NCBI GenBank assembly: GCA_040879785.1
Contig: JBBDJR010000004.1
Location: 14,778 to 78,777, forward strand
Length of the DNA: 64,000 nt
Source of the DNA: Candidatus Pacearchaeota archaeon
GTDB taxonomy: Archaea; Nanobdellota; Nanobdellia; Pacearchaeales; GW2011-AR1
Reading direction: 5' to 3'
Part shown: piece after piece, positions 10,513-58,246 of the stretch
Layout: each line of letters begins with the position of its first letter
How positions within the stretch are numbered: the stretch's first letter is position 1
Notes under the pieces: model-generated
What the model was told of the DNA's origin: nothing
The model's database searches: none
The model's input: only the letters and a program-made list of their open reading frames with translations
Program-made: the position numbers and the translations under genes

Positions 10513-12756
10513 CTAAGAAACATCATATGGTCTGACAGTAATACTACACTCGTCGGGTTTTGTTGGCCTGTTTCCGAACCCATCTGCACATTTTATGTAG
10601 AAGTTTCTGTTGGATTGCCAGTTTGTTGAGTGCTCTGTGTCTCCCTCGCTAGGATTCATCTTATCTCCTTTTTCAAAAGGATATCCACACCCAAGACTTA
10701 GATCGTTACTATAAACACACTCTGCCTCCTCATTAGTTATAATATTTAGATTTCCGCTACTCTGGAAGACTCTTACTACTCCCGGCGCTTGAATGTCCGT
10801 TTCCACTGTGAAGCTTATTTGGGTTGTGTCGGAGTTTCCTCCAGAGTCTGTACATCTTATATCGTAAGAGTAAGAGCCCGCGGAAAGATCAAGTCTCTGA
10901 CTATGTTCATGAGATCCTGTTTCTATAAAATTACTAAATCTATTTTCTCCTGCAGGACTGAAACTACATAGGGATTCTCCCCTATTGGCTCCTGCAGACG
11001 TTTTGACTTCAAGTTCTACTTTAATCACGTTAGTAGAATCTTTGATTGTTGTCGCATTAGGTCCTGCAGAGTCAAGTACTAATGGTTGAGTGCCGATTAT
11101 TCTTAAATGATATGGGATTTCGTTTGCATTTCTTTGATTCTCCTCTTCTGTTCCTTCAAGGTGTGGCTGATCTTTACAGCTTATATAAAAGTCGTTATTG
11201 TCTCTGTTTCTTAATCCTGTCAATTCAGTGTTACATCTGTATTCTCCAAGAGAAGTTGACTCAAGAGCACTCTCTGGACAGTCCATCTGGTTTTCTTCGG
11301 GCATATCCTCGTAGCTTTGTTCAAGTCTGCTCCACCTACACTCTGCAGGTTCATTTACAAATATTGAGGATCTGACAGACGATTGGTTAAATGCTATGTG
11401 ACTATTATCTGAAGGAAGGGTGTTAGTTATCACTGGTTCTTCAGTATCAGGCCCATCATCTACACAGAATCTAAACTGGAAATCTGCAGTATTTGAGTAT
11501 CCTTGGGGAGTTTGACATCTGACATAAAGAGAGATTTCTCCCCCATGCTGATAAGTTATGTTTTCTGCGGCAAGTGATTGATGGCTTGGAAGACTCATTC
11601 TGAATTGATGAGATTCATCAGACATTCCTCCACTCATAAATATATTTTGCATATCTTCAAACGTGCTTGCCCTTCCACTTACCGGAACAATTTTACATCT
11701 TGCATTTTTATCAAGCTCAACTCCAAACTCTAATGGAGTGAAAGGCGCTACACACCCACTATCTCCTTCATTTCTGACTATTTCAACACCTTTATGAGGT
11801 GGGTTAATTGCATCATCATCAGAGTAACTATAGCCTTCTGTCAAAACGTCATTCCAAGGCTCAATCACAGCAGGTTTTATATCATCTCTATCAACAAATT
11901 CACACTTTTTATTTTCTGTTCCTTCGTTGATTATTTCACAAGATTGTCCTAAACTCTTACACCTGTACTCTGTACAAGGAATCTCTTCATCATTACAAAG
12001 CTCACAATTTTCTCCTCCAAGTGGAGCGTCCCAAGGATAACACGAGAATGAAACAGAATCGTATCTTGCTTGCTTAAAAGACATGACTTTGTAGAGAATT
12101 CCAATTGTTGCCACTATTGGTCCCAGTGCTGGTACCGCTCCCCATAAAATAGTGCTTGTTAGAAAGTTTTCAACTCCTAAAAGACCGAGGGTTTTTGCAG
12201 TAGTTGCCCCAACTACATATCCCCAGAAAGCCCCTTTTCCTGCGGATTCAGAGAGTTCTGGACTTGCTCCTGCTATCTGGAAACCATATTGGGTTAGACC
12301 TTTAACCGCAAAAGCATAGGCTGCGTTAGCAGCCGCATATCCTAGCGTATTCCATAAAACTCCCCATCCTGCACCACTTCCTATTGAAGCTGTTGTAGGA
12401 TCAAGAACAGCTCCAATTCCTGAAGGGGAAGAGGTTTCTCCTCCTGTTGTAGCCTCAAGAGTCCCTTCTGCATCTCCTATATTAATTCGTTCAAGTATTT
12501 TATCGCTCGCTATATTTGCTCCTATAGGGACCCCTATATCTGTGATTGGATTTACACTTCTTCTGTTTATCTGGCCTGTTTCACCTTCTGCTGCCCCATT
12601 ATCAAAATCAGAATCTCCTTCTTGTGCACTCACAGAAGGCAAGCTGCTCCCTAAAAAATATGAGAAAGAAAATATAGCAACTACTAGAATAAATATTTGA
12701 GTTATTGCAACTATCCTCTGATTCTTTTCCGATTTCTCTTTTTTTGGTTTAATCAT
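10513..12756 (-). CDS. Large Cys-rich secreted/membrane protein
   Basis: 747 aa. Signal/TM at the N-terminus (IVAITQIFILVVAIFSFSYFLG). A ~100-aa Gly/Ala-rich hydrophobic segment (GAGWGVLWNTLGYAAANAAYAFAV...GAVPALGPIVATIGILY). More than 30 Cys in the rest. Confidence 0.6.
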   Translation of the reverse strand: MIKPKKEKSEKNQRIVAITQIFILVVAIFSFSYFLGSSLPSVSAQEGDSDFDNGAAEGETGQINRRSVNPITDIGVPIGANIASDKILERINIGDAEGTLEATTGGETSSPSGIGAVLDPTTASIGSGAGWGVLWNTLGYAAANAAYAFAVKGLTQYGFQIAGASPELSESAGKGAFWGYVVGATTAKTLGLLGVENFLTSTILWGAVPALGPIVATIGILYKVMSFKQARYDSVSFSCYPWDAPLGGENCELCNDEEIPCTEYRCKSLGQSCEIINEGTENKKCEFVDRDDIKPAVIEPWNDVLTEGYSYSDDDAINPPHKGVEIVRNEGDSGCVAPFTPLEFGVELDKNARCKIVPVSGRASTFEDMQNIFMSGGMSDESHQFRMSLPSHQSLAAENITYQHGGEISLYVRCQTPQGYSNTADFQFRFCVDDGPDTEEPVITNTLPSDNSHIAFNQSSVRSSIFVNEPAECRWSRLEQSYEDMPEENQMDCPESALESTSLGEYRCNTELTGLRNRDNNDFYISCKDQPHLEGTEEENQRNANEIPYHLRIIGTQPLVLDSAGPNATTIKDSTNVIKVELEVKTSAGANRGESLCSFSPAGENRFSNFIETGSHEHSQRLDLSAGSYSYDIRCTDSGGNSDTTQISFTVETDIQAPGVVRVFQSSGNLNIITNEEAECVYSNDLSLGCGYPFEKGDKMNPSEGDTEHSTNWQSNRNFYIKCADGFGNRPTKPDECSITVRPYDVS

Positions 12757-40315: not shown

Positions 40316-40387
40316 TGGGCAGAGAGGGAATCGAACCCTCGACGCCATGAGCTTCAGTCATGTGCTCTCCCACTGAGCTACCTGCCC
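40316..40387 (-). tRNA. tRNA-Phe (GAA)
   Basis: The reverse complement GGGCAGGTAGCTCAGTGGGAGAGCACATGACTGAAGCTCATGGCGTCGAGGGTTCGATTCCCTCTCTGCCCA folds as a cloverleaf. Anticodon loop CTGAAGC. CCA is not encoded. Confidence 0.8.
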
Positions 40388-41714: not shown

Positions 41715-42017
41715 TTAAAATCTTCTTTGTCCTCCGCCGGAATTTCTTCCACCATCTCTTCGTGGCGGCCTGTCTTCCATTGGTCTTGCTTCGTTAACTT
41801 TCAATGCTCTACCTTCAACTTCTTTCTCATTCATTTCTTTGATAGCTTTCTTAGCTCCTTCATCATCTGAAAAAGTCACGAAACCAAATCCCTTAGATCT
41901 GCCTGAAAACTTGTCTGAAATAACTGTTGCTTCTTCGATATCTCCATGTGAAGAGAATAGTTCTTTCAGCTTCTCAGAGTCAATACTAAAAGGCAAATTA
42001 CCTACATAAACTTTCAT
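41715..42017 (-). CDS. RRM-domain RNA-binding protein with RGG-like tail
   Basis: MKVYVGNLPFS (RNP2) and RSKGFGFVTF (RNP1). C-terminal RPPRRDGGRNSGGGQRRF. SD GGAGG upstream. Confidence 0.75.
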   Translation of the reverse strand: MKVYVGNLPFSIDSEKLKELFSSHGDIEEATVISDKFSGRSKGFGFVTFSDDEGAKKAIKEMNEKEVEGRALKVNEARPMEDRPPRRDGGRNSGGGQRRF

Positions 42018-42188: not shown

Positions 42189-42806
42189 ATGGTGATGGAA
42201 TTGTTAGCTTATCTTTTTGTGAGTATTGCAGCCGTCTTTGTTATTGTTAATCCTCTGACAACTGCATTTATTTTTTCTTCATTAGTCAAAAATGCGTCAG
42301 ATAAAGAGAAAAGAACTATTGCAAGAAAAGCAACCCTCACATCAACAATAATCCTAATAACATTTGCTCTTCTTGGAGGCGTTATTTTCATGCTTTTTGG
42401 GATAACTCTCGCTGCGTTTAAAATTGCTGGAGGAATCATCTTGTTTGGAATTGGTATGAGTATGCTTAAGGAAAGTGATGAAAAAATGAAACTCAAGGAC
42501 GGAAAAGTTTCAGAAGGAATTGCAGTAGTCCCTTTAGCAATCCCTTTTATTAGCGGCCCGGGCTCAATTGCACTGGTTATGATTTTAACGAGCGAGGCAC
42601 CCTCACCAATTCATGTGCTTGTAGTTTTTGCGGCCGTTTTAATCACGACTATTGCCTGCTATTATTCGATGGTTTATTCTAAATATATCATCAACTATCT
42701 TGGAGAAACCGGAAAACAGATAGTGTCTAAACTTTTCGGTCTTATACTTGCGGTTATCGCGGTCCAGTTCGTGATTAACGGAATTCTTGATAGCGGATTG
42801 ATTTAA
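42189..42806 (+). CDS. MarC-family (UPF0056) integral membrane protein
   Basis: VNPLTTAFIFSSL..., FGITLAAFKIAGGIILFGIGMSML. Six TM helices. Confidence 0.7.
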   Translation: MVMELLAYLFVSIAAVFVIVNPLTTAFIFSSLVKNASDKEKRTIARKATLTSTIILITFALLGGVIFMLFGITLAAFKIAGGIILFGIGMSMLKESDEKMKLKDGKVSEGIAVVPLAIPFISGPGSIALVMILTSEAPSPIHVLVVFAAVLITTIACYYSMVYSKYIINYLGETGKQIVSKLFGLILAVIAVQFVINGILDSGLI

Positions 42807-44280: not shown

Positions 44281-45795
44281 TTAAGAATTGCTGGCTTTGA
44301 TTTCTCCTAGATAATTTCTAATTTCTTTTAGGAACAAGCCCCCAAAATCTTCCAACTTCTGTTGTCCGACTCCTTTTATTTCGAGGAATTCCTCGCTGTT
44401 TTTAGGGAGGCAGAAGGCCATTTCCTGCAGGGAGACATCACTAAAAATAATGTAAGGCGGGACTTTTCTTTCGTCTGCGATTTTTCTTCTGAGTATTTTC
44501 AATTTTATGAAAAGTTTTTTGTCGTAGTCCAGCCCGCTTTCATTTTCCCAGGAGGTTAAATCTTTGTTGCCTTTTCCTGAAGAAACCGCTTCTTTTCCAA
44601 AGTCTTCATGAGTGCCGAGACAGACGTCGCATTTGTTGCACTTTTCCTCTTTGTATTCTTCTCCAAAATGCCTTAAGATGTGTCTTCTTCTGCATAAACG
44701 AGTCTCACAATACCTTATCACCTTGTTTAGCTTTTCCTTTTCTTTTGCTTTTGAATCCTCATCTTCAAGCTGGTCTATGAAGAACTCGTGTTTCCTTTTG
44801 TCTCCGTATGAATAAAACATGATGCAGTCGCTCGGCAATCCGTCTCTTCCCGCTCTTCCTATTTCCTGATAGTATCCTTCAAGTGTTTTTGGGAATGTGT
44901 GGTGAATTATTAAACGGACGTCGGGTTTGTCGATTCCCATACCGAACGCGATTGTCGCCACAATTATTTCTACCTTGTCTTTAATAAACAACTCCTGATT
45001 GTGTTTTCTTATTTTATTGTCAAGTCCCGCGTGATACGGCAAAGAGTTAAGCCCGTTTTCATTAAGTTTTCTCGAGAGATTTTCAACCTCTTTACGTGAA
45101 TGACAATAAATTATTACAGAATCGTTTTCTCTTCCTTTAAGAAGCTCCATGATTTTATCAAAACTTTTTTTCTTTTTTGTGACTGAAAGATTTAGGTTTT
45201 TTCTGTCGAAACTCGAGATAAACATTTCCGGTTCTTTGAGTGAGAGTTCTTTTATTATGTCTCCTCTTACTTTCTCCGTCGCTGTTGCAGTAAGTGAAAT
45301 CATTGGAGTTTCAGGAAAAAATTCTCTGAGTGATTTTAGCTTTCTGTAGCTTGGTCTGAAGTCGTGCCCCCACTCCGAAATGCAATGCGCCTCGTCGACA
45401 GCAATAAGGCTAACTTCCGCTATTCGTATGAGTCTCATAAAACTTTCGGATTCTATTCTTTCAGGAGCTATGTAAAGCAACTTTATTTCCCCGTTCATTA
45501 TCCCGAGTTCAATCCTAAGAGCTTCTCTGGAATCAAGAGTAGAGTTAATATATTCTGCAGGAATTCCGTTTGCCTTTAGCCCATCAACTTGGTCTTTCAT
45601 TAAAGAAATTAGGGGAGAAACAACTATTGTCAGCCCGTCGAGTTTCAATGCAGGAATCTGATAGCAAAGTGATTTCCCGCCGCCCGTCGGCATAATCGCA
45701 ACGACATCCTTCCCTCCAAGAACTTTTTCAATAACCTGTCGCTGCATCGGCCGGAACTCATCATATCCAAAATACCTCTTTAATATCTCTTCCAT
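44281..45795 (-). CDS. recQ: ATP-dependent DNA helicase RecQ
   Basis: YFGYDEFRPMQRQVIEKVLGGKDVVAIMPTGGGKSLCYQIPAL, DEAH box (VDEAHCISEWGHDFRP), RQC Zn-finger Cys cluster, HRDC-like C-terminus. Confidence 0.85.
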   Translation of the reverse strand: MEEILKRYFGYDEFRPMQRQVIEKVLGGKDVVAIMPTGGGKSLCYQIPALKLDGLTIVVSPLISLMKDQVDGLKANGIPAEYINSTLDSREALRIELGIMNGEIKLLYIAPERIESESFMRLIRIAEVSLIAVDEAHCISEWGHDFRPSYRKLKSLREFFPETPMISLTATATEKVRGDIIKELSLKEPEMFISSFDRKNLNLSVTKKKKSFDKIMELLKGRENDSVIIYCHSRKEVENLSRKLNENGLNSLPYHAGLDNKIRKHNQELFIKDKVEIIVATIAFGMGIDKPDVRLIIHHTFPKTLEGYYQEIGRAGRDGLPSDCIMFYSYGDKRKHEFFIDQLEDEDSKAKEKEKLNKVIRYCETRLCRRRHILRHFGEEYKEEKCNKCDVCLGTHEDFGKEAVSSGKGNKDLTSWENESGLDYDKKLFIKLKILRRKIADERKVPPYIIFSDVSLQEMAFCLPKNSEEFLEIKGVGQQKLEDFGGLFLKEIRNYLGEIKASNS

Positions 45796-45910: not shown

Positions 45911-48900
45911 ATGAGTGGAGAGAATACACTTTTTAATGATACCACAATAAAAAGATTAGTCTCAGATACTAAACTGACATCTAAACAGAAAAAAGCTTCT
46001 CAAGAATGGCTTAAACTAATTGAAGAAGACAAATTAATAAAAGAGAAGCAAGGATACCTTAGGTTTTATGATATTATCCTAAAGGAGTTATTAGGGTATG
46101 ATAATATTAAACACGAAAAAGAAGGTGTTGAATTTTCTTATGAAAAAGAAGGAAAACCTATCTTAAGAATTGAGGCAAAGGGGATGGATACTCCAGATTT
46201 GTTTCTGCCCCAGAAGAGAGCAAGAGAAGAGTCTCCAGTTCAACAACTTTGGAGATATATGCAATTACATGCAAGTCCTTATGGGATAGTCACTAATTAT
46301 AAAATTTTTATTTTTTTCAAATACGACATTGGAAGCACAAAATATTATCTCTTTGATTTTGAAGAGATAAAAAAAGACTCGAACAAACTGCAAGAATTTG
46401 TAGCTATTTTTTCAAAAGAAAATATAGATAAGGGTTTTGTTGAAGATTTATACGAAGAATCAATAATTGAAGAAAGAGAGTTTACAAAAGAATTCTACAA
46501 GTTATATCATGAAACAAGATTAATGTTGATAAAGGAATTTGAAGAAAACCCAGATATTAGTAGGGAGGCTTCTGTTCACTTTGCACAACTTTTCCTTAAT
46601 AGGTTAATGTTCGTATTTTTTGCAGAAGATACCGGAAAGATAGATAAGAGGGTTATTGAGGACAGAATTTTGAAGACCTTGGATAACATTCATTTATTCT
46701 CATCAAATTCTTCAAATATTTCTAATGTGTTGGTAGGATTATTTAGGGATTTAGACAAAGGAAGTGATTTTCCAATTAAGGTTTTTGGATTTAATGGAGG
46801 ATTATTTCACCATCCAATTCCCCCAAAAATTTACTTCAAAGATTTTAGAGATAGTAAATTTTTCAAGGATGTTAATCAATATTCAAAATTAAAGAAAAAA
46901 GATTTAGAAATAAATGAGAAAGAAAAAGAGATTTTTGAGAAATATAAAAATAAGATTAGTCCAATAATAAAAAATGTTTTGTTGATGGCTTCATTTGATT
47001 TTAATACTGAAGTGGATGTTAATATTTTAGGGCATATTTTTGAGCAATCTATTTCAGATATTGAAGATTTGAAAATTGACAAAAGCTCAAGAAGAAAAAA
47101 AGAAGGAATTTATTATACGCCTTCATATATAACAGACTACATTTGTAGAAACACAATAATTCCTTATCTCTCGAATAAAGGGGAAACAGAAATTTCTGGC
47201 TTGATCAAGGAATATGCTGATAATATTTGGGATTTAGAAAAAAAGTTTAAAGAAATGAAAATCTTAGATCCTGCTTGTGGTTCTGGAGCATTTTTAATTA
47301 GAGCTACTGACATTATGCTTGAAGTATTTAAGGCAATTCAAGAATTTAAACAACAAGAAGGAGAGTATGGGGCAAAAAGAGGATTAAAAAGAAAGAGCAA
47401 TAACAAAGGACAATTAATCTTGGAAAAATGGAACGAAGAAGCAGAAGCAAGAGAGATTATAGAAAATAATATTTATGGCGTAGATATTAATGAAGAGTCT
47501 GTTGAGATAACAAAACTTTCGTTGTTCTTGAAAATGGCACGAAAGAATAGAAAACTCACGGATTTATCTAATAATATCAAAAAAGGAAATAGTTTGATAA
47601 ATGATTCTTCTGTTGCTGGAGATTTGGCTTTTGATTGGGATAAAGAGTTTAAAGATATAATGGACAATGGCGGATTTGATGTTGTTATTGGGAATCCTCC
47701 TTATGTCGAAGCAAGAAGTATAGAACAAAAATTTGTAGATTTCTTAAGGAAGAATTATAAAACCTCTGGCAATAGGATAAACATCTTCGCTTCTTTTATT
47801 GAAAAAGGTCTTAGCTTACTAAAGACAGAAGGATATTTTAGTTATATTATTCATAGAAACCTAATACGTTCAAACGACTACCATAAAACAAGAAGATATA
47901 TTTTAGATAATTCAAAAATAAAACAAATATTAAGTTTTTCACAAGGAGTTTTTGAGGGTGTAACGGGAGAGATGACCGTTGTAATATTAAAAAAAAGCAA
48001 CTATGAAAAAAAGGAAAATACATTGCTTGTTTATGAATATGGAAGTGAGATAAATCCAGATATTAAACCATGGAAGATAAAACAAGGAATCTTTGAAGAA
48101 ACTGCGGGGAATAGATTTAACATATATCTGACCGATAAAAAAATTAAAATCTTAGAAAAAATAAAACAAAAATGTTCTAAGTTAGGAGAATTGGCTGAAA
48201 CATACCAAGGCATTATTGTCGGAAATGAAAAAAAATATGTTTCAAAAAACAAAGAATCTGATAAATATAAACCAATTTTAAGAGGTAGAGATATTTCTCG
48301 TTATGGGTATCCAAGAGCAAAAGAATTTGTTTATTATGTTCCTGGAACAAAAGTGCTTACAAGAGGAAAAACACCCTCATTATTTGAAAAAAAGGAAAAA
48401 ATATTAACTCAACACGTTTCTGGAGATATTATAGCAACATTAGACGCAGAGCAAAAATATTTTCTACAAACAATAAATTCTACGACATCCATTAAAGAGG
48501 GTATTAAAAATAAGTATTTACTTACCTTATTAAATTCAAAAGTAATAAATTTTTATTATAGCAGTATATTTAATCTAGGAGCAGAGTTTACAACTGCCGT
48601 AGCAATAGAAAATCTAGATGAACTCCCTATAAAAACAATTTCTCTTTCAGAACAAAAACCCTTCATAGAAAAATCAGACTTAATGCTAAAACTAAATAAA
48701 GAATTCTACGAGAAAAAGAATAAATTTTTGAAGCTTATTAAACACGAATATAAAATTGAAAAGATTACTAAAAAATTAGATGAGTTTTATAAATTAGAAT
48801 TTGATGACTTTATCAAGCAATTAAAAATTAAGGTAAATATAGATAAAAAATCTGAAATTTTGGACTTTTTTGAAAAAAACAAAAAAGAGATATCCAAATT

Positions 48901-49006
48901 AAAAGAAGAAATTGATAAAACTGACAGGGAAATTGATGAAATGGTTTATGGGTTGTATGGATTGACTAAGGAAGAGATAGGGGTTGTTGAGGGGAGTTTG
49001 AACTAA
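45911..49006 (+). CDS. Type IIL restriction-modification enzyme, MmeI family (fused PD-ExK endonuclease + gamma-class N6-adenine MTase + TRD)
   Basis: N-terminal E..x13..IEAK nuclease motif, LFLNRLMFVFFAEDTG (MmeI has LVRLLFCLFAEDT), FNGGLF, LDPACGSGAFLI (motif I), VIGNPPYV (motif IV). 1031 aa. Confidence 0.8.
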   Translation: MSGENTLFNDTTIKRLVSDTKLTSKQKKASQEWLKLIEEDKLIKEKQGYLRFYDIILKELLGYDNIKHEKEGVEFSYEKEGKPILRIEAKGMDTPDLFLPQKRAREESPVQQLWRYMQLHASPYGIVTNYKIFIFFKYDIGSTKYYLFDFEEIKKDSNKLQEFVAIFSKENIDKGFVEDLYEESIIEEREFTKEFYKLYHETRLMLIKEFEENPDISREASVHFAQLFLNRLMFVFFAEDTGKIDKRVIEDRILKTLDNIHLFSSNSSNISNVLVGLFRDLDKGSDFPIKVFGFNGGLFHHPIPPKIYFKDFRDSKFFKDVNQYSKLKKKDLEINEKEKEIFEKYKNKISPIIKNVLLMASFDFNTEVDVNILGHIFEQSISDIEDLKIDKSSRRKKEGIYYTPSYITDYICRNTIIPYLSNKGETEISGLIKEYADNIWDLEKKFKEMKILDPACGSGAFLIRATDIMLEVFKAIQEFKQQEGEYGAKRGLKRKSNNKGQLILEKWNEEAEAREIIENNIYGVDINEESVEITKLSLFLKMARKNRKLTDLSNNIKKGNSLINDSSVAGDLAFDWDKEFKDIMDNGGFDVVIGNPPYVEARSIEQKFVDFLRKNYKTSGNRINIFASFIEKGLSLLKTEGYFSYIIHRNLIRSNDYHKTRRYILDNSKIKQILSFSQGVFEGVTGEMTVVILKKSNYEKKENTLLVYEYGSEINPDIKPWKIKQGIFEETAGNRFNIYLTDKKIKILEKIKQKCSKLGELAETYQGIIVGNEKKYVSKNKESDKYKPILRGRDISRYGYPRAKEFVYYVPGTKVLTRGKTPSLFEKKEKILTQHVSGDIIATLDAEQKYFLQTINSTTSIKEGIKNKYLLTLLNSKVINFYYSSIFNLGAEFTTAVAIENLDELPIKTISLSEQKPFIEKSDLMLKLNKEFYEKKNKFLKLIKHEYKIEKITKKLDEFYKLEFDDFIKQLKIKVNIDKKSEILDFFEKNKKEISKLKEEIDKTDREIDEMVYGLYGLTKEEIGVVEGSLN

Positions 49007-49110
49007 AAATATATAAACTGAAAAATCAATTGAATAATAACTAAAAGAGAGGTGATCGGAGAAGAATCCGGGTGATCCCTCTCTGATTACTTCTGAGATA
49101 GATAATAATT

Positions 49111-49920
49111 ATGAGTGAAGAACAAAAAGAACATACGCATGAAGTATACTCTGATGAATCTGGGCATAACCAAGGAAAATATGGAGCAATATCTGCTATA
49201 AGTCTTGAAAAAGAATTAGTTAAAAAGACAGAGGCAACATTGAAAGAAATATTTGAAGAGTCAAATGTAGAGGAATTAAAATGGAGTAAAATAAGAAGTG
49301 CAAAATACAGGTTGTGTGCAGAAAAAGTCATAGATTTTATTTTTTCAATTTTCGGAGAAGGGAATCTCAGAATAGATATAGCTATTTGGGATGTTAAGGA
49401 AAGAAAGTCTAAATATCTTCATAACAATACGGAATCTCTAAAGAGAATGAATCATCAACTTTTTAAGAACATTTTATCAAGATGGCCAAAAGAATCAAGA
49501 TTGAAATTCTTCCCAGATAGGCACGAAGAAATAAATTGGGAAAAAATGAAAGAAATTTTAGATTATGTAATCCCTGAAGGAAGAGAAATAAGTATAGAAG
49601 AGATTCCCTCAAAAGATTTCTTTTTAGGACAGGTAGCAGATCTTTTTTCTGGACTAGGATCTTTTTCTCACTCAAATAAAGATATAAGAAATTTTCATAG
49701 CGACCAAAAACAACTCCCCAATTCAAGTAAGGATCCAATATCTAATTCAAAAAATGAAAAAATAAGAGTTCTTTCTTACTTTAAAAGAAAAGCAAAAGAA
49801 AAGGGATATAATGTCGAACAGAATGGAATTTTACATACAAAAGATCCTAAAGACCCCCTTAATTTTTGGCCTTTCAAGTTTAAAGACTATGCAAATAAGA
49901 AATTATCTGAGTTTTTTTAG
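49111..49920 (+). CDS. DUF3800-family protein
   Basis: N-terminal EVYSDESGHNQGKYGAISAISL (the Y.DESG hallmark). Confidence 0.5.
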   Translation: MSEEQKEHTHEVYSDESGHNQGKYGAISAISLEKELVKKTEATLKEIFEESNVEELKWSKIRSAKYRLCAEKVIDFIFSIFGEGNLRIDIAIWDVKERKSKYLHNNTESLKRMNHQLFKNILSRWPKESRLKFFPDRHEEINWEKMKEILDYVIPEGREISIEEIPSKDFFLGQVADLFSGLGSFSHSNKDIRNFHSDQKQLPNSSKDPISNSKNEKIRVLSYFKRKAKEKGYNVEQNGILHTKDPKDPLNFWPFKFKDYANKKLSEFF

Positions 49921-49941
49921 TAATTTCTATTAAATTCTAGT

Positions 49942-50790
49942 TCACTCTTTCTGCCTTTTTAGCTTATCTAGAGTTTTCCCATCCTTATTTTTCCATTCAA
50001 GCCATCCATTTGCAGGCCTCCCCAGTACTACCGCCGCAGCATTAGAAGGAGAACTCATTAATAAATCTTCATCAAAGATTAATTTATTATCTACCTCTTT
50101 CAGGATATCATTTCTTTTAAGTGCCTCTTTATATTCTTTTATTGCATAATTGAGTGAGGCAACATCATCTAACCTTGCTTTCGACCCTTCATAAACAACA
50201 AAACCCTCTTCAGTTAAATTTCCCTTCGCTTCCGCATCCTTACCTTTACAATAAAATATATCTTCTTCTCTTTCAGCCTTCTTAATTTTTTCAAATATTG
50301 GATAGCCTAATGTCCCTAAAATAAGTTTTATCTCATCAAAAAACTGCAATGAAAAATCTTTTTCTGAAGGGGATAAACTTGATCTTGTTGGTGAACAATT
50401 ATTCATTAGGTCTGTGCGTTTTGATTTTTCAGCTTCTTCATGACAGAATGACTCTAAAAATTTTACATGAGCTTTATTAAGATTGTCTTTCCCTGAAACA
50501 AAACAAACTGCATAATTCCAGTAATCCTTATTTGGACTATCATGCTGTTTTATTCTTTTCTTTATATCTTCGGCCTCACCAATATAGGTTTTAAATTGAG
50601 ATGATTCGTCTTTCTCACTAAATAAGAAATAAATTCCAACTTTCTCTAAATTTTCATAATCTTGTGCCTCTTTAATTAAATTCCTTGGAATCTGGATTGC
50701 TTTAATTATTGAATTAGGTATCTCACAGATTTTAACTCCTTTTGGGTTCCCGTCTGGGAGATAAATATTGATTGTTTTTCCTCTTACCAT
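49942..50790 (-). CDS. GIY-YIG nuclease fused to DUF4357 domain
   Basis: GIYFLFSEKDESSQFKTYIGEAEDIKKRIKQH (GIY...YIG). C-terminal SSPSNAAAVVLGRPANGWLEWK (DUF4357-like). Confidence 0.6.
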   Translation of the reverse strand: MVRGKTINIYLPDGNPKGVKICEIPNSIIKAIQIPRNLIKEAQDYENLEKVGIYFLFSEKDESSQFKTYIGEAEDIKKRIKQHDSPNKDYWNYAVCFVSGKDNLNKAHVKFLESFCHEEAEKSKRTDLMNNCSPTRSSLSPSEKDFSLQFFDEIKLILGTLGYPIFEKIKKAEREEDIFYCKGKDAEAKGNLTEEGFVVYEGSKARLDDVASLNYAIKEYKEALKRNDILKEVDNKLIFDEDLLMSSPSNAAAVVLGRPANGWLEWKNKDGKTLDKLKRQKE

Positions 50791-50796
50791 GGTATA

Positions 50797-52266
50797 TTAA
50801 CTAACTATCTCCTTTAATTTATTTACTATTAACATTTCAGCTAAAGTATCCAACTCACAATATTTCAACAAATCCCCTCTAATTTTCTCCCTCTCATCCT
50901 CAGAATAAACATCCTCATAAGCCATATTATAAAACTCAACCGAAGCTGTTCCACCATCTTTTATACTCCCATCAAGCTCTTTGTAACTCTTTCCGGTTAT
51001 TGCAGGAAGAACAGCTTTTAGTGAGGCAGAACCCTCTTGTTTAGGATTGTAATAACTAAATTCTCTGAAAGGGATAAGCAAATCAATAATTCTTTTCAGA
51101 ACCGATTCAACCCATTCTTTATGTTCTGGGAAATGTTCTGCAAGCTCTTTTAATCTTCCAATCTCAAAGCTTTGGTTATAAACAACAATGCTTCCTTTAT
51201 CTCCTAACACTTTTTTCAAAGCTAAAACAAAATCTTCTCTTGGATCTTTATTTCCGTTATACAAAAATTCATAATGTTTAGGTTCTGCACCTTCTTCCTC
51301 AACAACGTGCAAAGAAAACTGAAAACAAACCTGAGAATAAGGCTTCAAGCCATCAAACAGGGGAACAGATGTGGAAAAAGTTTCAAAATCAAGATAATAA
51401 AGAGGGTATTGTAATTTTTTCATAAAATTATTAATTCTTTTTTCATCAACAAAGATTTTTCCATTAATCTCACAATCTCTCTGGATTTTCTGTTTTCCAT
51501 TTAGTTTAATATCCTCGGGAATCTCTTTTATTGTTTCGATTCCATTCTCAAATAATTCACAACTTAATTTTCCTCCGCGATAAAGACAGAAAACATGATT
51601 TTCAGGCAGCTCAACACATCCTTCGGAAAAACAATCATGAAATCCATCTTTGAAAACCTTAACCAAAGAAAGACCTGCTTTTGGAGGCTCTTTCAAAGAA
51701 ACAAAATCAAATAATTCTTTAATCTGGTTGTCAATTCCTTTAATGGCTTTCTCAACTTCACCAGTTATATCTTCTTTTTCAAATAAATTATTAACATCAA
51801 TCTCTCCACTCTTTACAAATCCCTTATTCAGATGCAATAGAAAACACTTTCTTATCTTTAAGCCATTTCCTTCATAAACATACTTCTGAAAAGAAACATC
51901 ATGAACATTAATATCCTTGACTTTAGTGCTTGACTTAACCTCTATTATATCCCACTTATCCCCAACGGGAACTAGAATATCTGCTCTTGAAAAGCAGTTA
52001 TTAAACTCAAATCCAGCTTCAAATAAAGGCTTTTTCTTCTTTAGGGATTCTTTGCTTTCTTTGAGATTTTCCTTGTAATCTGTGGGCAAATCTATGCCTT
52101 CAGGAAAGAGCATTTTAGCTATTTGACCTGCTTTATCCCCCTCCTTAAACTTAAACTCCTCAGCCAGAGTAGCTTTCCTTATCTGCTCGGGCTGATTAAA
52201 CACAATCCAGAGATATCTCGGGCATTCCAGGCCAACCAGATAATTTGACTTTGTTAAGGCTTTCAT
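50797..52266 (-). CDS. DUF2779-family protein (Cas4/RecB-like PD-(D/E)xK N-domain + RNaseH-like exonuclease C-domain)
   Basis: SKSNYLVGLECPRYLW; ADILVPVGDKWDIIEVKSS (D...EVK); YYLDFETF...PYSQVCFQFSLH (DUF2779 hallmark). 6-nt gap to the downstream GIY-YIG gene. Confidence 0.6.
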   Translation of the reverse strand: MKALTKSNYLVGLECPRYLWIVFNQPEQIRKATLAEEFKFKEGDKAGQIAKMLFPEGIDLPTDYKENLKESKESLKKKKPLFEAGFEFNNCFSRADILVPVGDKWDIIEVKSSTKVKDINVHDVSFQKYVYEGNGLKIRKCFLLHLNKGFVKSGEIDVNNLFEKEDITGEVEKAIKGIDNQIKELFDFVSLKEPPKAGLSLVKVFKDGFHDCFSEGCVELPENHVFCLYRGGKLSCELFENGIETIKEIPEDIKLNGKQKIQRDCEINGKIFVDEKRINNFMKKLQYPLYYLDFETFSTSVPLFDGLKPYSQVCFQFSLHVVEEEGAEPKHYEFLYNGNKDPREDFVLALKKVLGDKGSIVVYNQSFEIGRLKELAEHFPEHKEWVESVLKRIIDLLIPFREFSYYNPKQEGSASLKAVLPAITGKSYKELDGSIKDGGTASVEFYNMAYEDVYSEDEREKIRGDLLKYCELDTLAEMLIVNKLKEIVS

Positions 52267-52412
52267 TATAGGTTTAAGAGGAGAGAGATTATTTATAAAT
52301 CTTGCAGAATTTTACCCAAATTTTTTCTTCGCAAAAACTTCTGTTAATGCCGATGTTTGTGAGATGTGCGTTGGAGAAACTATTATAAATTAAAATTGAT
52401 TGATAACTATGT

Positions 52413-53078
52413 ATGATATATGAAATTAAATCAGATAAAGGAGTCCTTGTTGCAGAAATACACTTTCTTACTGACAGGAAAGAAATAAAAAATAGTAAAG
52501 TTACTCGTCTTATCAAAGAAGCTTTATTAAAGTGCTATAAGGAGATTCCTTTGAAAAATAAAAAAGTAGCTGTTTTTTATACGGATTACAAGTTTATCAA
52601 GGATAAAATGGGAGGAGTAGGAGGGAATGCTCTTCATGAAAATCTTATTTCTCTATACATTAATCCTTCAAATAAAAAATGGAAGGACCGTCTGGAATCT
52701 TTTATAGTACACGAATACTCTCATCTGACTGTTTTTGATAAAAGAAAATGGAAGACTATTGAAGATTCTTTAATAATTGAAGGAATTGCTGAGGTTTTTA
52801 GAGATGAGATTGTCGGCGGAAAACCATCTCCTTGGACGAGTGCATTGACAGAGAAGGAAGCTAAAGATTTGCTTAAGAAAATAAAGAATAAATTAAAGAC
52901 TCCTGTAGAGAAAATGCATAAAGAATTATTTTTTGGCTCAAAAGAATTCAAGATGTGGTCAGGTTATTCGCTTGGATACCAAATAGTAAAAAGTTTTAGG
53001 AAAAAATATCCTGAATTAAGTTGGAAGAAGATAATAAAAATGAAATCTTCCGAGATCTTGAAAAAATCAGAATTCTAA
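52413..53078 (+). CDS. Putative zinc metallopeptidase (HExxH; DUF2268-like)
   Basis: FIVHEYSHLTVF. 221 aa. Confidence 0.45.
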   Translation: MIYEIKSDKGVLVAEIHFLTDRKEIKNSKVTRLIKEALLKCYKEIPLKNKKVAVFYTDYKFIKDKMGGVGGNALHENLISLYINPSNKKWKDRLESFIVHEYSHLTVFDKRKWKTIEDSLIIEGIAEVFRDEIVGGKPSPWTSALTEKEAKDLLKKIKNKLKTPVEKMHKELFFGSKEFKMWSGYSLGYQIVKSFRKKYPELSWKKIIKMKSSEILKKSEF

Positions 53079-53189: not shown

Positions 53190-53221
53190 AATGAACTCGC
53201 TTGGGCAAATCGGATTAAAAA

Positions 53222-56050
<2,829 letters not shown>

Positions 56051-56153
56051 TTGAGACTTTCGTCTCATGTGGGATTTCCTCTACTTATTTCATTGAAAAT
56101 AATTTGTGAGTTATTTTCTCAAAATGATCCCGTAAAATCTACGGAACCACTGT

Positions 56154-56489
56154 TCAACTTTTGGTTGAATATGATTTGTGATTTTGTGATTGTTGATATT
56201 CTATAACTTCAATTTCCGCTCCCTGAAATTTATCTCTAATTTCTCTAGAGACTCTATCCTGAGCTTCTATCTCATAATTTTCTGAGTCATTTATCCTATA
56301 AGCAATGTTTTCTTTGCCTATTTTTGAACCAATTATCCTATAATGGGTTGGATTATCTTGAGCATTTATCTGAACCGTGAACATATAGACTCTTTCCCCA
56401 TTTACGATTACTTCCAGCCTTTTTCCTGAAGGCATTGTGCCATTTATCTTGGGAAAGTACACTTTTCCATTCCTTCCCATCCGGTTCAT
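56154..56489 (-). CDS. Hypothetical 111-aa protein encoded inside the tRNAAla-23S spacer of the rRNA operon
   Basis: Complex, non-repetitive ORF (GKVYFPKINGTMPSGKRLEVIVNGERVYMFTVQ...). AT-rich coding-like composition unlike the flanking rRNA. Sits between tRNA-Ala and the 23S processing stem. Confidence 0.35.
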   Translation of the reverse strand: MNRMGRNGKVYFPKINGTMPSGKRLEVIVNGERVYMFTVQINAQDNPTHYRIIGSKIGKENIAYRINDSENYEIEAQDRVSREIRDKFQGAEIEVIEYQQSQNHKSYSTKS

Positions 56490-56585
56490 TTTCTATTTCC
56501 ATTTTGTTTATTTGATTTGACATTTATTTTTACCTTCTTTATGTAACTAAATCATCTTGTTAAACGTCCAGAAAAATTGTTCGAA

Positions 56586-56702
56586 TGGACCTGCCGTGAA
56601 TCGAACACGGAGCTCCTCGGTTTTTGGCGACAACAAAAAGACTTCGCGAAGCAAGTTCACGTCGCGTGCAAACGAGGGATTTTGCCGTTAAACTACAGGC
56701 CC
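56586..56702 (-). tRNA. tRNA-Ala (TGC) with ~45-nt intron at 37/38, in the 16S-23S spacer
   Basis: GGGCCTGTAGTTTAACGGCAAAATCCCTCGTTTGCA[intron CGCGACG...CCAAAAA]CCGAGGAGCTCCGTGTTCGATTCACGGCAGGTCCA. Cloverleaf stems all pair. Anticodon TGC. Confidence 0.75.
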
Positions 56703-56785
56703 TTATTATTTTGTGCCCGCAGTTGTTTTTAAACTTTTTCTGAACTTAAGATGAGTATGTAGAAACAATCTCGCCGTATTCTATA

Positions 56786-58246
56786 AAATTTTTAGGAGGT
56801 GATCCATCTGCAGGTTCCCCTACAGATACCTTGTGACGACTTAACCTACCTCGCCATATCGTGGCTCTCCTTCGAAAAGTTTCACCATAACATAACTTGG
56901 TTGGTTTGACGGGCAGTGAGTGCAAGAGACAGTGACGTATTCACCGTTCGCTGATAACAAACGATTACTACGGATTCCAGCGTCATGAGGCTGAGTTACA
57001 AACCTCAATCTGAACTAAAGCGGACTTTAAGAGATTAGCTTCTCCTTTCAGAGTTGCATCTCGTTGTATCCACCATTGCCGCGCGCGTGTTGCCCAGGGG
57101 ATTCGGGCTGTACTCACCTAACGTAGCCCTCACTTTCATCCATGTTGCCATGGCAATCTCTAATATAGTACACGTAGTAAATATAGATGAGGGTTTTGCC
57201 TGTTACCTGATTTAACAGGTCACCTCACGGCACAGGCTGACGTCGGCCATGCAGCTCCTCTCAGCGTGTCAGGTAAGCCCTTCAGACTGACCTTCATTCT
57301 GCTGTCGCTCCTGGTGAGGTTCACGGTGTATAATCTAATTGAACCGCACGCGTCACCCGTTGTAGTGTCTCCCCGCCTATTCCTTTAAGTTTCGGTCTTG
57401 CGACTATACTTCCCAGGTAGCACACTCTTCGCCTTCGCTGCAGCACCGACACCTCTCGAGGAGGTACCGATGTTTAGTGTGCAGTGTTTACTGCTAGGAC
57501 TACACGGGTATCTAATCCGTTTTGCGCCCCTAGCCTTCATCCCTTACAGTCAGAACCGTTCTCGTAAGATGCCTTCGCTATTGTGAGTCCGCTCAAGATC
57601 AACACATTTTACCGCTACTTTGAACGTACTTCTTACGTCTCCCGGTCTCTAGTTAGACAGTATTTCCCGCTCGCCCCAGGCTTGAGACTTGGGATTTCAC
57701 AGGAAACTGATCTAACAAGCTACGGATGTTTTAGACCCAATAAATGTGGCTGCGACTTGGACCGCTAGTATTACCGCGGCGGCTGGCACTAGTCTTACCC
57801 AGTCCTTATTCGCCAAACTTTTTACATTTGGCAAAAGCTTCTCTATGAGAAGCACTCTGGCTCAAACTATCACGCTTTCGCGCATTGTAGATTATTCCTA
57901 ACTGCTGCACCCCGTAGGGCTGGGAATAGTGTCTCAGATTCCCTCTCAGGGCTCTTCCGCTAAGAACCCTTACGGATCTTTGGCTTGGTGGGCTATTACC
58001 CCGCCAACAACCTAATCCGCCGCAACCCCATCCTTAGGCTCGAGTTTAAAAGTGAATTCATTCCAGGGATTCACTCCTATCGTGTGTTAGCCTCAGTTTC
58101 CCGAGGTTATCCACGACCTAAGGGCAGGTTAGTTACGTGTTACTGAGCAGTTCGCCTTCACCTTAATTCCGAAGAACCAAAGCAAAAAACTAGCATGTCT
58201 AATTGCAAACCAGAGAGCCGCAGCCGCCAGCAGGATCAACTGGATT
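56786..58246 (-). rRNA. rrs: 16S rRNA
   Basis: 5' AATCCAGTTGATCCTGCTGGCGG; 3' ...AAGTCGTCACAAGGTATCTGTAGGGGAACCTGCAGATGGATCACCTCCT (anti-SD). Length ~1461 nt. Confidence 0.85.

Follow-up and report, generated by a model that had tools for sequence, protein, structure and literature searches.

The region from 45.9 to 52.3 kb of the window, by which is meant the whole stretch of 64,000 nucleotides analyzed here from contig JBBDJR010000004.1 (GCA_040879785.1), is likely a horizontally acquired, layered defense island framed by the genes of a restriction-modification (RM) enzyme and a DUF2779 protein, with cargo genes between them. The host is a DPANN archaeon (Candidatus Pacearchaeota), and the window is low-GC archaeal DNA in which an archaeal RNase P RNA and a tRNA were also found with Rfam. 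The cargo consists of a DUF3800 gene and a GIY-YIG/DUF4357 gene, and the gene of a DUF2268 protein, which reaches to 53.1 kb, may also be in the island. Apart from the leads followed below, this is an ordinary defense island of known families; the new point is the pairing of the RM enzyme with DUF2779 around a cargo slot.

An earlier note, made from the letters of the sequence, had described a defense island of five consecutive accessory genes beside the rRNA operon. The five open reading frames (ORFs) lie where the note had placed them (Table 1) and contain the motifs that it quoted, and profile searches with Pfam and PADLOC back the type IIG/MmeI-like, DUF3800, GIY-YIG/DUF4357, and DUF2779 assignments. 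The block does lie beside the 23S rRNA gene, with 137 nt between the end of the last ORF (DUF2268) and the 23S 3' end.

The restriction-modification enzyme

Sequence comparison and structural models identify the 1031-aa protein as a complete single-chain type IIG enzyme with MmeI-like architecture and an Eco57I/TaqI-type methyltransferase and target-recognition domain (TRD), and the enzyme is probably active. It matches the Pfam families Eco57I (6e-44), TaqI_C (2e-19), N6_Mtase (4e-19), MmeI_Mtase (1e-14, 54.5 bits), and MmeI_hel (2e-8, 35.2 bits; cut-off 27 bits for both MmeI models), all above curated cut-offs, and its best PADLOC model is REase_MTase_IIG (1e-74). The nuclease residues (E69/E74 and E88-A-K90) and the sequence LFLNRLMFVFFAEDT (aa 227-241) precede the methyltransferase. 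In an alignment of 40 homologs, which share 42-73% identity with the window protein and come nearly all from DPANN archaea, E69, E88, K90, Q112, T128, N129, and Y130 are invariant, as are D453, A455, C456, G457, S458, G459, and F461 of methyltransferase motif I and N595, P596, P597, and Y598 of motif IV. Column conservation collapses over the TRD, which fits a specificity module.

The N-terminal domain (aa 1-220) of the window protein has no Pfam match of its own, including none to MmeI_N at E ≤ 0.01, and across the family this region matches HSDR_N_2 in 17 and MmeI_N in 12 of the 40 homologs. In the AlphaFold2 (AF2) model of the enzyme (pLDDT 81), the ExK residues are located on a three-strand core (strands 66-68, 75-79, and 82-89). 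Foldseek places CamA closest to the methyltransferase and TRD (1e-24) and gives long superpositions on PglX/BrxX, BpuSI, DrdV, and MmeI, and with sequence profiles and Foldseek taken together the nearest relatives of these two domains are CamA, BseCI, and TaqI. The spacer of MmeI (5HR4) is also matched by sequence, at 1e-7 with the single RM sequence and at 3e-14 with the RM profile.

The nuclease (E69/E88/K90) and the Eco57I/N6_Mtase domains are encoded within one ORF that has its own TRD. The earlier claim of a single-chain enzyme with no separate S or R gene is borne out, as a scan of the neighboring ORFs (ORF list, Pfam) found neither gene and no Methylase_S/hsdS ORF. The claim that the enzyme belongs to the MmeI family is right in part: the architecture agrees, and MmeI_hel and MmeI_Mtase match in all 40 homologs, but the methyltransferase is matched best by Eco57I, the TRD is of the TaqI_C type, MmeI_TRD is found in one of the 40 homologs and MmeI_C in none, and neither of the latter two is detected in the window protein. 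The better label is MmeI-like type IIG, since type IIL, the other term in the note, refers to a biochemical property, methylation of one strand of the site.

The DUF2779 protein

The 489-aa protein at the other end of the frame is identified, from its sequence and its predicted structure, as a Cas4/RecB-like PD-(D/E)xK nuclease fused to a DEDDy-type 3'-5' exonuclease, a reading that agrees with published sequence analyses. It matches Pfam DUF2779 at 7e-44 (149.5 bits vs a cut-off of 23.3) and RNase_H_2 at 3e-7. The N-terminal half contains D96, E109-x-K111, and Q127-x-x-Y, together with Cys15, 141, 212, and 217, and the C-terminal half contains D293-x-E295, D395, and Y469-x3-D473. Two alignments, of 8 and 36 sequences, show no variation at D96, E109, K111, Q127, D293, E295, D395, Y469, or D473, and the larger has a mean column identity of 67%. 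With the AF2 model (pLDDT 92.5), Foldseek matches the N-terminal half to Cas4 (8D3L, 1.7e-4; also 4R5Q) and MGME1, and the C-terminal half more weakly to ERI2, the DinG exonuclease domain, and RNase H; a sequence-only search of the PDB with this protein gave no significant match.

PADLOC, which has no DUF2779 model, gives weak Cas4 matches only (6e-4). A CRISPR-associated Cas4 was considered and rejected, given the weak score and the lack of a cas1/cas2 operon or array in the scanned stretch: Pfam and PADLOC found no further cas match beside the weak Cas4 among the ORFs of 43.8-53.1 kb, and a search of 43-54 kb gave no CRISPR repeat array, these being the parts of the window that were screened. 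There were two confirmed DUF2779 matches in 2.9 million viral contigs, and DUF2779 is unlikely to be a viral gene.

Recurrence of the pair and its variable cargo

In the first two RM homologs examined (loci L001 and L003), a DUF2779 gene lies convergent a few kb downstream of the RM gene, with different genes between. When a single genome per species was scanned, 80 RM loci were obtained, of which 54 have at least 4 kb of downstream sequence. DUF2779 is present in 6 of these 54, always 3' of the RM gene and never upstream, and the positive loci fall in Nanoarchaeota-type archaea (3 of 9) and Saccharibacteria (3 of 4), with none among the 41 others. Altogether, RM and DUF2779 genes bracket one to five locus-specific genes in 12 independent loci of Nanoarchaeota/Pacearchaeota-type archaea and Saccharibacteria, including HEPN, M78+DUF4411, HARE-HTH nuclease, and NYN genes. 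Five of the loci are translationally coupled operons, two from Nanoarchaeota and three from Saccharibacteria (L007, L016, L049, L050, and L070), in which RM, cargo, and DUF2779 follow on the same strand as overlapping or abutting genes. The order in L007 and L016 is RM, HEPN, a 260-aa gene, and DUF2779, with 4-nt overlaps, and in L070 a HARE-HTH+PD-ExK gene stands between RM and DUF2779, each gene abutting the next.

Loci centered on DUF2779 itself were collected by exact-protein look-ups, which gave nine informative archaeal loci besides the window (ten in all), and by a search of plasmids; a further archaeal locus, L089, is cut at a contig end. A restriction system lies within a few kb of DUF2779 in nine of the ten. 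The neighbors of DUF2779 are a split type IIG enzyme, NYN, and an S subunit in L086, type IIG RM homologs in L091 and L092 (1e-110 and 1e-103 to the profile of the window enzyme), HinfI and a methyltransferase in L093, GmrSD and HEPN in L090, a DpnII RM system and HNH in L094, and an AlwI RM system with TIR, UDG, and Nmad3 in L095. L096, with PDDEXK_4, an SMC-like ATPase, and a UvrD-PDDEXK_1 helicase-nuclease, is counted among the nine restriction-associated loci, and L088, with an SLFN-like helicase and MazG, has no restriction system. The DUF2779 copies of L094, L095, and L096 occupy separate islands on one 2.26-Mb contig (GCA_019058195.1) and are 61-65% identical to the window protein. On bacterial plasmids, DUF2779 is located among OLD, WYL, PLD, NERD, and DUF4357 genes.

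The bracketed genes differ between the classes of arrangement and are shared only by closely related pairs of loci. As none recurs beyond such pairs, a third conserved component amongst the cargo was ruled out, and the DUF3800 and GIY-YIG/DUF4357 genes of the window are treated as exchangeable cargo between RM and DUF2779. The earlier note had joined the GIY-YIG and DUF2779 genes into an operon. The two genes are indeed adjacent on the same strand, with 6 nt between the DUF2779 stop and the start of the GIY-YIG gene, and they are probably co-transcribed in the window, but their adjacency does not recur in related loci, where the recurrent pair is RM and DUF2779.

The M78+DUF4411 pair, which is cargo in L003 (13052-14681), has a homologous pair directly after DUF2779 in the Saccharibacteria locus L050 (14692-16355). 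The two pairs are 23-26% identical, so that this accessory pair accompanies islands in both domains of life.

Lateral acquisition

The evidence points to the five genes being accessory rather than core genes of the whole lineage, as the earlier note had claimed. The comparison of GC content that the note had called for shows all five genes under the window mean of 0.363 (58 genes), with the RM gene the lowest of the 58, the DUF3800 gene third, and the DUF2268 gene fifth (0.306). Between the window and L086, the DUF2779 DNA is 81.7% identical, compared to 78% for 16S and 74% for 23S rRNA, and a protein gene more conserved than rRNA indicates lateral transfer. The RM and DUF2779 homologs also have unrelated surroundings, with PolD/Cdc6 as the neighbor in L001 and with ribosomal protein genes and a transposase nearby in L003. 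Over the 1.9 kb that encode its N-terminal part, the window RM gene is 82% identical in DNA to its L003 homolog, whereas the TRD has no DNA match, a pattern that indicates a swap of specificity.

A block of 6,463 nt (9730-16192 of L003, 1-6463 of L004) is 100% identical in two assemblies and contains an 83-aa ORF followed by the RM, M78 peptidase, DUF4411, and DUF2779 genes. The two sequences cease to match 54-72 nt upstream of the DUF2779 start, beyond which the right flanks are unrelated, and DUF2779 thus marks the edge of a unit that is present in two contexts. The contig of a third assembly, L005, breaks at the point where L003 and L004 diverge. The pattern across the three assemblies fits a mobile or strain-variable module.

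Proposed mechanism and alternative explanations

If the island functions as a layered defense, the RM enzyme would methylate one adenine in its own asymmetric site, protecting the sites of the host, and would cleave incoming DNA that is not methylated there, at a set distance from the site, in the manner of MmeI, BpuSI, and DrdV. The DUF2779 protein would attack the cut ends by 5'-3' (Cas4-like) and 3'-5' (DEDD) activities and degrade the fragments. In bacteria, the degradation of fragments after restriction is the job of RecBCD or AddAB, and DUF2779 could fill a role of this type that these small genomes would otherwise lack. We infer that DUF2779 probably shreds restriction-cut DNA. The GIY-YIG+DUF4357 protein may form a second, modification-sensing layer against DNA with foreign methylation and the DUF3800 protein a further nuclease layer. 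The cargo and the specificity domain of the RM enzyme are swapped between lineages.

A more far-reaching reading, which we put forward tentatively, is that the type IIG RM enzyme and DUF2779 constitute a previously undescribed two-component "restrict-and-shred" cassette with an internal cargo slot, moving as a unit among DPANN archaea and the Candidate Phyla Radiation (CPR; Saccharibacteria). DUF2779 would be a dedicated end-processor that makes restriction irreversible without RecBCD or AddAB, and the slot would be an exchange hotspot for type IV-like nucleases, HEPN, toxin-antitoxin-like pairs, and DUF3800. DPANN archaea and CPR bacteria are mostly without CRISPR and are thought to be reliant on restriction systems. 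If DUF2779 is indeed the partner that finishes off cut DNA in these lineages, a widespread domain of unknown function would gain a role, a remark of 2017 on solo-Cas4 genes beside RM genes in DPANN archaea would be explained, and a restriction cassette that is compact, portable, and fitted with a slot for exchangeable cargo would be defined. Moreover, a predicted writer of N6-methyladenine (6mA) beside a predicted methyl-adenine-sensing nuclease offers a natural test case for the avoidance of self-toxicity.

Several points weigh against the functional island described here. The five proteins and the RM family are described here from sequence and models, and the samples of loci are small and partly related (L001/L010, L007/L016, and L049/L050/L070). 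DUF2779 is missing from 48 of the 54 RM loci, including all 41 outside the Nanoarchaeota-type archaea and Saccharibacteria, and it also occurs beside non-RM defense genes (L088, L096, and bacterial plasmids). In the window it is convergent to the RM gene and shares no operon with it. The 6mA reading of DUF4357/RAMA is a proposal, and the binding preference of MPND could not be confirmed. Furthermore, the DUF2779 homolog MMSYN1_0389 is quasi-essential in the minimal Mycoplasma JCVI-syn3.0 (PMC13621843), which hints at a housekeeping role for DUF2779.

Because the pairing is not universal and DUF2779 also lies beside non-RM genes, general clustering in islands could explain much of the signal. 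Five stand-alone systems may simply have gathered at a permissive site with no functional link between RM and DUF2779, and this is the most serious alternative, one that we regard as quite possible. It is favored by the DUF2779 genes near non-RM defense genes (L088, L096, and the plasmids with OLD/WYL/PLD/NERD), by the many RM loci that lack DUF2779, and by the convergence of the two genes in the window. Against it, DUF2779 is always 3' of the RM gene, translationally coupled operons are found in both archaeal and bacterial loci, an identical RM-cargo-DUF2779 module moves as a unit (L003/L004), and nine of ten DUF2779 loci, the window included, are near a restriction system.

It is unlikely that DUF2779 is instead a housekeeping nuclease of repair or recombination that marks a chromosomal hotspot for the integration of defense genes. 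Such a role would suit the quasi-essential homolog in JCVI-syn3.0, the good conservation of the family (67% mean column identity), and the housekeeping genes or rRNA that lie on the 5' side of DUF2779 in most loci. On the other hand, the 5' flanks differ in every locus, the DUF2779 gene has diverged less in DNA between the window and L086 than 16S and 23S rRNA have, and the gene is found in three copies in different islands of one 2.26-Mb contig as well as on bacterial plasmids. The limited data already point to incongruence between DUF2779 and its hosts or to patchy presence, and thus away from a housekeeping role.

That the 1031-aa protein is mainly a methyltransferase (PglX-like or orphan/epigenetic) and not a working restriction enzyme is likewise improbable. 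Its best full-length structural matches include PglX/BrxX (TMq 0.51-0.54), its top matches are to the orphan methyltransferase CamA, and homologs are labelled "N-6 DNA methylase" by NCBI. PglX and CamA, however, have no N-terminal domain, whereas here E69, E88-x-K90, Q112, and the TNY residues are invariant in 40 homologs, and HSDR_N_2 or MmeI_N is matched in 29 of 40 member-hits. There are also no BREX genes nearby, and the best PADLOC model is that of a type IIG enzyme.

Nucleotide scavenging, in which RM and DUF2779 would digest foreign or host DNA for salvage in auxotrophic episymbionts, is very unlikely. In its favor, the pair is found mainly in ultra-small lineages that depend on a host (Nanoarchaeota/Pacearchaeota-type archaea and Saccharibacteria), and a dual-polarity exonuclease suits complete digestion, but the loci give no sign of uptake or salvage genes, and the variable cargo is of the immunity or toxin type (HEPN, M78+DUF4411, GmrSD, and HARE-HTH nucleases).

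Cargo genes and the DUF2268 gene

The DUF3800 protein matches its Pfam family at 1e-7 (33.2 bits vs a cut-off of 21) and the PADLOC model PDC-M04A at 1e-12. The hallmarks of the family are an N-terminal DE and a C-terminal QxxD motif (PMC7736814), which appear here as YSDESG at aa 13-18 (including D15-E16) and Q174-V-A-D177, and an RNase H-like fold is predicted. Within the 104 nt that separate the RM gene from the DUF3800 gene lies a GC-rich hairpin with a minimum free energy (MFE) of -24.9 kcal/mol (z = -3.5 vs 200 shuffles). At least 11 structured RNA motifs, unrelated to one another, are known to accompany DUF3800 genes (PMC5737381). In 45.7-53.3 kb, which takes in the hairpin and the DUF3800 gene, no Rfam family was found at E ≤ 5 other than the 23S end and snoRNA-like matches due to chance. 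The hairpin may mark the end of a transcript, act in regulation, or be an RNA associated with DUF3800.

The GIY-YIG protein is matched by PADLOC model PDC-S14 (PDLC04925) at 7e-105 across aa 1-280 of 282, and by Pfam DUF4357 (1e-19) and GIY-YIG (2e-5), both above cut-offs. An overlapping RAMA match (2e-4, 21.6 bits) is under the Pfam cut-off of 35.2. The residues of the nuclease domain include GIY at 52-54, YIG at 69-71, R79, and E113, and a sequence-only search of the PDB with this protein gave no significant match. A role as 6mA-dependent type IV enzymes has been proposed, but not tested, for fusions of GIY-YIG with RAMA (PMC11037411), and by analogy the window protein is predicted to be a modification-sensing (type IV-like) endonuclease. 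On Salinibacter ruber plasmid pSR67 (L101), two short DUF4357-domain genes (11651-12662) lie about 4 kb from DUF2779 and are 40-50% identical to the C-terminus of the window protein, a second, weak co-occurrence of DUF4357 and DUF2779.

The HExxH protein that the earlier note had included as the fifth gene is matched by DUF2268 (Pfam 1.5e-28, "predicted Zn-dependent protease") with HEYSH at aa 100-104 and is a predicted Zn-metalloprotease. A link to defense is not apparent, with no PADLOC match for the protein and no DUF2268 homolog in the related loci and islands. Membership is consequently read from position and low GC, and the gene is doubtful as part of the island.

Neighborhood of the island

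Table 1. Features of the island and its flanks, with positions in the window or residues of the encoded protein.
Feature	Position	Strand	Basis or remark
RecQ helicase	44281-45795	-	NCBIfam TIGR01389, Pfam; left-hand flank, excluded from island
Type IIG (MmeI-like) RM enzyme, 1031 aa	45911-49006	+	ORF list, Pfam, PADLOC, 40-homolog alignment, AF2, Foldseek
N-terminal PD-(D/E)xK nuclease	aa 1-220 of RM protein		
Nuclease motif E69...E74...E88-x-K90	46115-46183	+	Q112 and T128-N129-Y130 just downstream
Helical spacer	aa 221-320 of RM protein		
Gamma-class N6-adenine methyltransferase	aa 370-715 of RM protein		
Methyltransferase motif I (S-adenosylmethionine binding), DPACGSGAF	47267-47293 (aa 453-461)	+	Read from sequence
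Methyltransferase motif IV (catalytic), NPPY	47693-47704 (aa 595-598)	+	
TaqI_C-type TRD	48269-48631 (aa 787-907)	+	Variable part of enzyme
C-terminal helical bundle	aa 912-1031 of RM protein		
GC-rich hairpin in RM/DUF3800 spacer	49041-49101	+	MFE vs shuffles
DUF3800 protein, 269 aa	49111-49920	+	Pfam, PADLOC, motifs; treated as cargo
GIY-YIG + DUF4357/RAMA-like protein, 282 aa	49942-50790	-	PADLOC PDC-S14, Pfam; treated as cargo
GIY-YIG nuclease domain	aa 51-128 of 282-aa protein		
DUF4357/RAMA-like domain, C-terminal	aa 222-274 of 282-aa protein		
DUF2779 protein, 489 aa	50797-52266	-	Pfam, alignments, AF2, Foldseek
DUF2268 predicted Zn-metalloprotease, 221 aa	52413-53078	+	Pfam
23S rRNA	53216-56044	-	Rfam LSU_rRNA_archaea, 2265 bits; right-hand flank of island
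16S rRNA	56794-58246	-	Rfam, archaeal

The left-hand flank encodes a RecQ helicase divergent from the RM gene, with a 115-nt spacer between. It is a full bacterial-type helicase in a DPANN archaeon, with 664.8 bits to the recQ model TIGR01389 (cut-off 640) and a complete Pfam architecture (DEAD, Helicase_C, RecQ_Zn_bind, and HRDC). Its GC content at third codon positions (GC3) is +2.0 standard deviations from the window mean, while the island skews the opposite way, and the gene is probably a separate lateral acquisition. RecQ and a 143-aa ORF were also considered as a PsyrTA or Dpd module and rejected, as the protein passes the recQ equivalog cut-off and has the full RecQ architecture. The Dpd (7-deazaguanine) system was further dismissed because DpdF scores 190 bits vs a cut-off of 550 and PADLOC found no other dpd genes. 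The PADLOC matches of RecQ to DpdF and PsyrT are generic RecQ similarity.

No tRNA is located at the island borders, the only tRNAs being at 40316-40387 and in the rRNA spacer, and no integrase or transposase was found among the scanned neighbors of the island (ORF list, Pfam). Searches for flanking direct or inverted repeats gave nothing convincing, all candidates being short, 70-80% AT-rich matches. With bacterial models, no intrinsic terminators were found, and sigma-70 promoter-like sites were at or below the shuffle expectation; these scans are uninformative, as would be expected of an archaeal host.

On the right-hand side, the 16S-23S spacer (56045-56793) holds a tRNA for which the Rfam span is 117 nt (56586-56702, 45 bits), suggesting an intron; ARAGORN reports a tRNA-Asp over 56585-56659 only. 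A 111-aa ORF in the same spacer (56154-56489, rRNA strand) has no Pfam match, and no 5S rRNA linked to the operon was found anywhere in the window. The DUF2779-led island of L086 (4119-10470) also adjoins an rRNA operon, on the 16S-promoter side and not the 23S side, so that an rRNA-operon neighborhood is seen in two of about a dozen loci (the window and L086).

Two further genes of the window are found again within a few kb of other islands: an RRM-domain protein (41715-42017, - strand) is 69% identical to one in L001 (19996-20367), and a MarC membrane protein (42189-42806, + strand) is 36% identical to one in L004 (8644-9270). The proximity of RRM and MarC genes to RM-DUF2779 islands in three genomes may represent a loosely conserved neighborhood.

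Comparison with known systems

The window RM enzyme has the same domain order as MmeI (5HR4), BpuSI (3S1S), and DrdV (7LO5), namely nuclease, spacer, gamma-class N6-adenine methyltransferase, TRD, and helices. Foldseek aligns 900-1100 columns of the window protein to these solved enzymes at an identity of 11-14%. Compared to MmeI, the methyltransferase scores 150 bits as Eco57I and 54 bits as MmeI_Mtase, the TRD is of the TaqI_C type with MmeI_TRD and MmeI_C undetected, and more of the homologs have a nuclease domain closer to HSDR_N_2 than to MmeI_N. PglX/BrxX (8C45, 9EWZ), which give the best full-length superposition, have in common with the window enzyme the Eco57I-type methyltransferase, the TaqI_C-type TRD, and the C-terminal helices. 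However, PglX is without a nuclease domain and needs other BREX proteins, whereas the window enzyme has an invariant nuclease motif. Membership in BREX was rejected, as the NCBIfam PglX models give 42-124 bits vs cut-offs of 400-900 and no Brx or PglZ is found among the neighbors.

The GIY-YIG protein corresponds over its full length to PDC-S14, with GIY-YIG in the N-terminal half and a C-terminal DUF4357/RAMA-like domain. No paper testing PDC-S14 was found, and PDC-S14 is a computational candidate. As the window gene adjoins an N6-adenine methyltransferase, the specificity of its product must be such that the mark of the host itself is tolerated. Retron type VII and Cas12a2-linked (TPR-DUF3800) systems include DUF3800 proteins, but a partner reverse transcriptase, Cas12, or TPR is absent from this locus. 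No second component of PDC-M04 was identified here either, and none of the 11 published DUF3800 RNA motifs was detected in the window region with Rfam.

The closest described relative of the window DUF2779 protein is MMSYN1_0389 (PMC13621843), in which a Cas4-like PD-(D/E)xK nuclease and a DEDD(y/h) exonuclease have the same catalytic residues. Solo-Cas4 genes beside RM genes in DPANN archaea, and exchange between DPANN and CPR, were remarked on in 2017 without follow-up (PMC5704561), but that Cas4 is of the pfam01930 type and not clearly the two-nuclease DUF2779 fusion. A Cas4-family accessory nuclease has been shown by experiment to boost defense by prokaryotic Argonaute (pAgo) in the pAgo-ACE1 system (APACE1; PMC12094033). 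ACE1 is, however, a single-domain ssDNA endonuclease that binds pAgo. No paper linking DUF2779 itself to restriction systems was found. To our knowledge, which here does not include a dedicated literature search, no hotspot framed by DUF2779 and the gene of a type IIG RM enzyme has been described. Defense genes embedded in RM or BREX operons and hotspot islands likewise combine conserved framing genes with lineage-variable cargo. The RM and DUF2779 bookends, however, are themselves laterally moving nuclease genes and not core genes of the chromosome.

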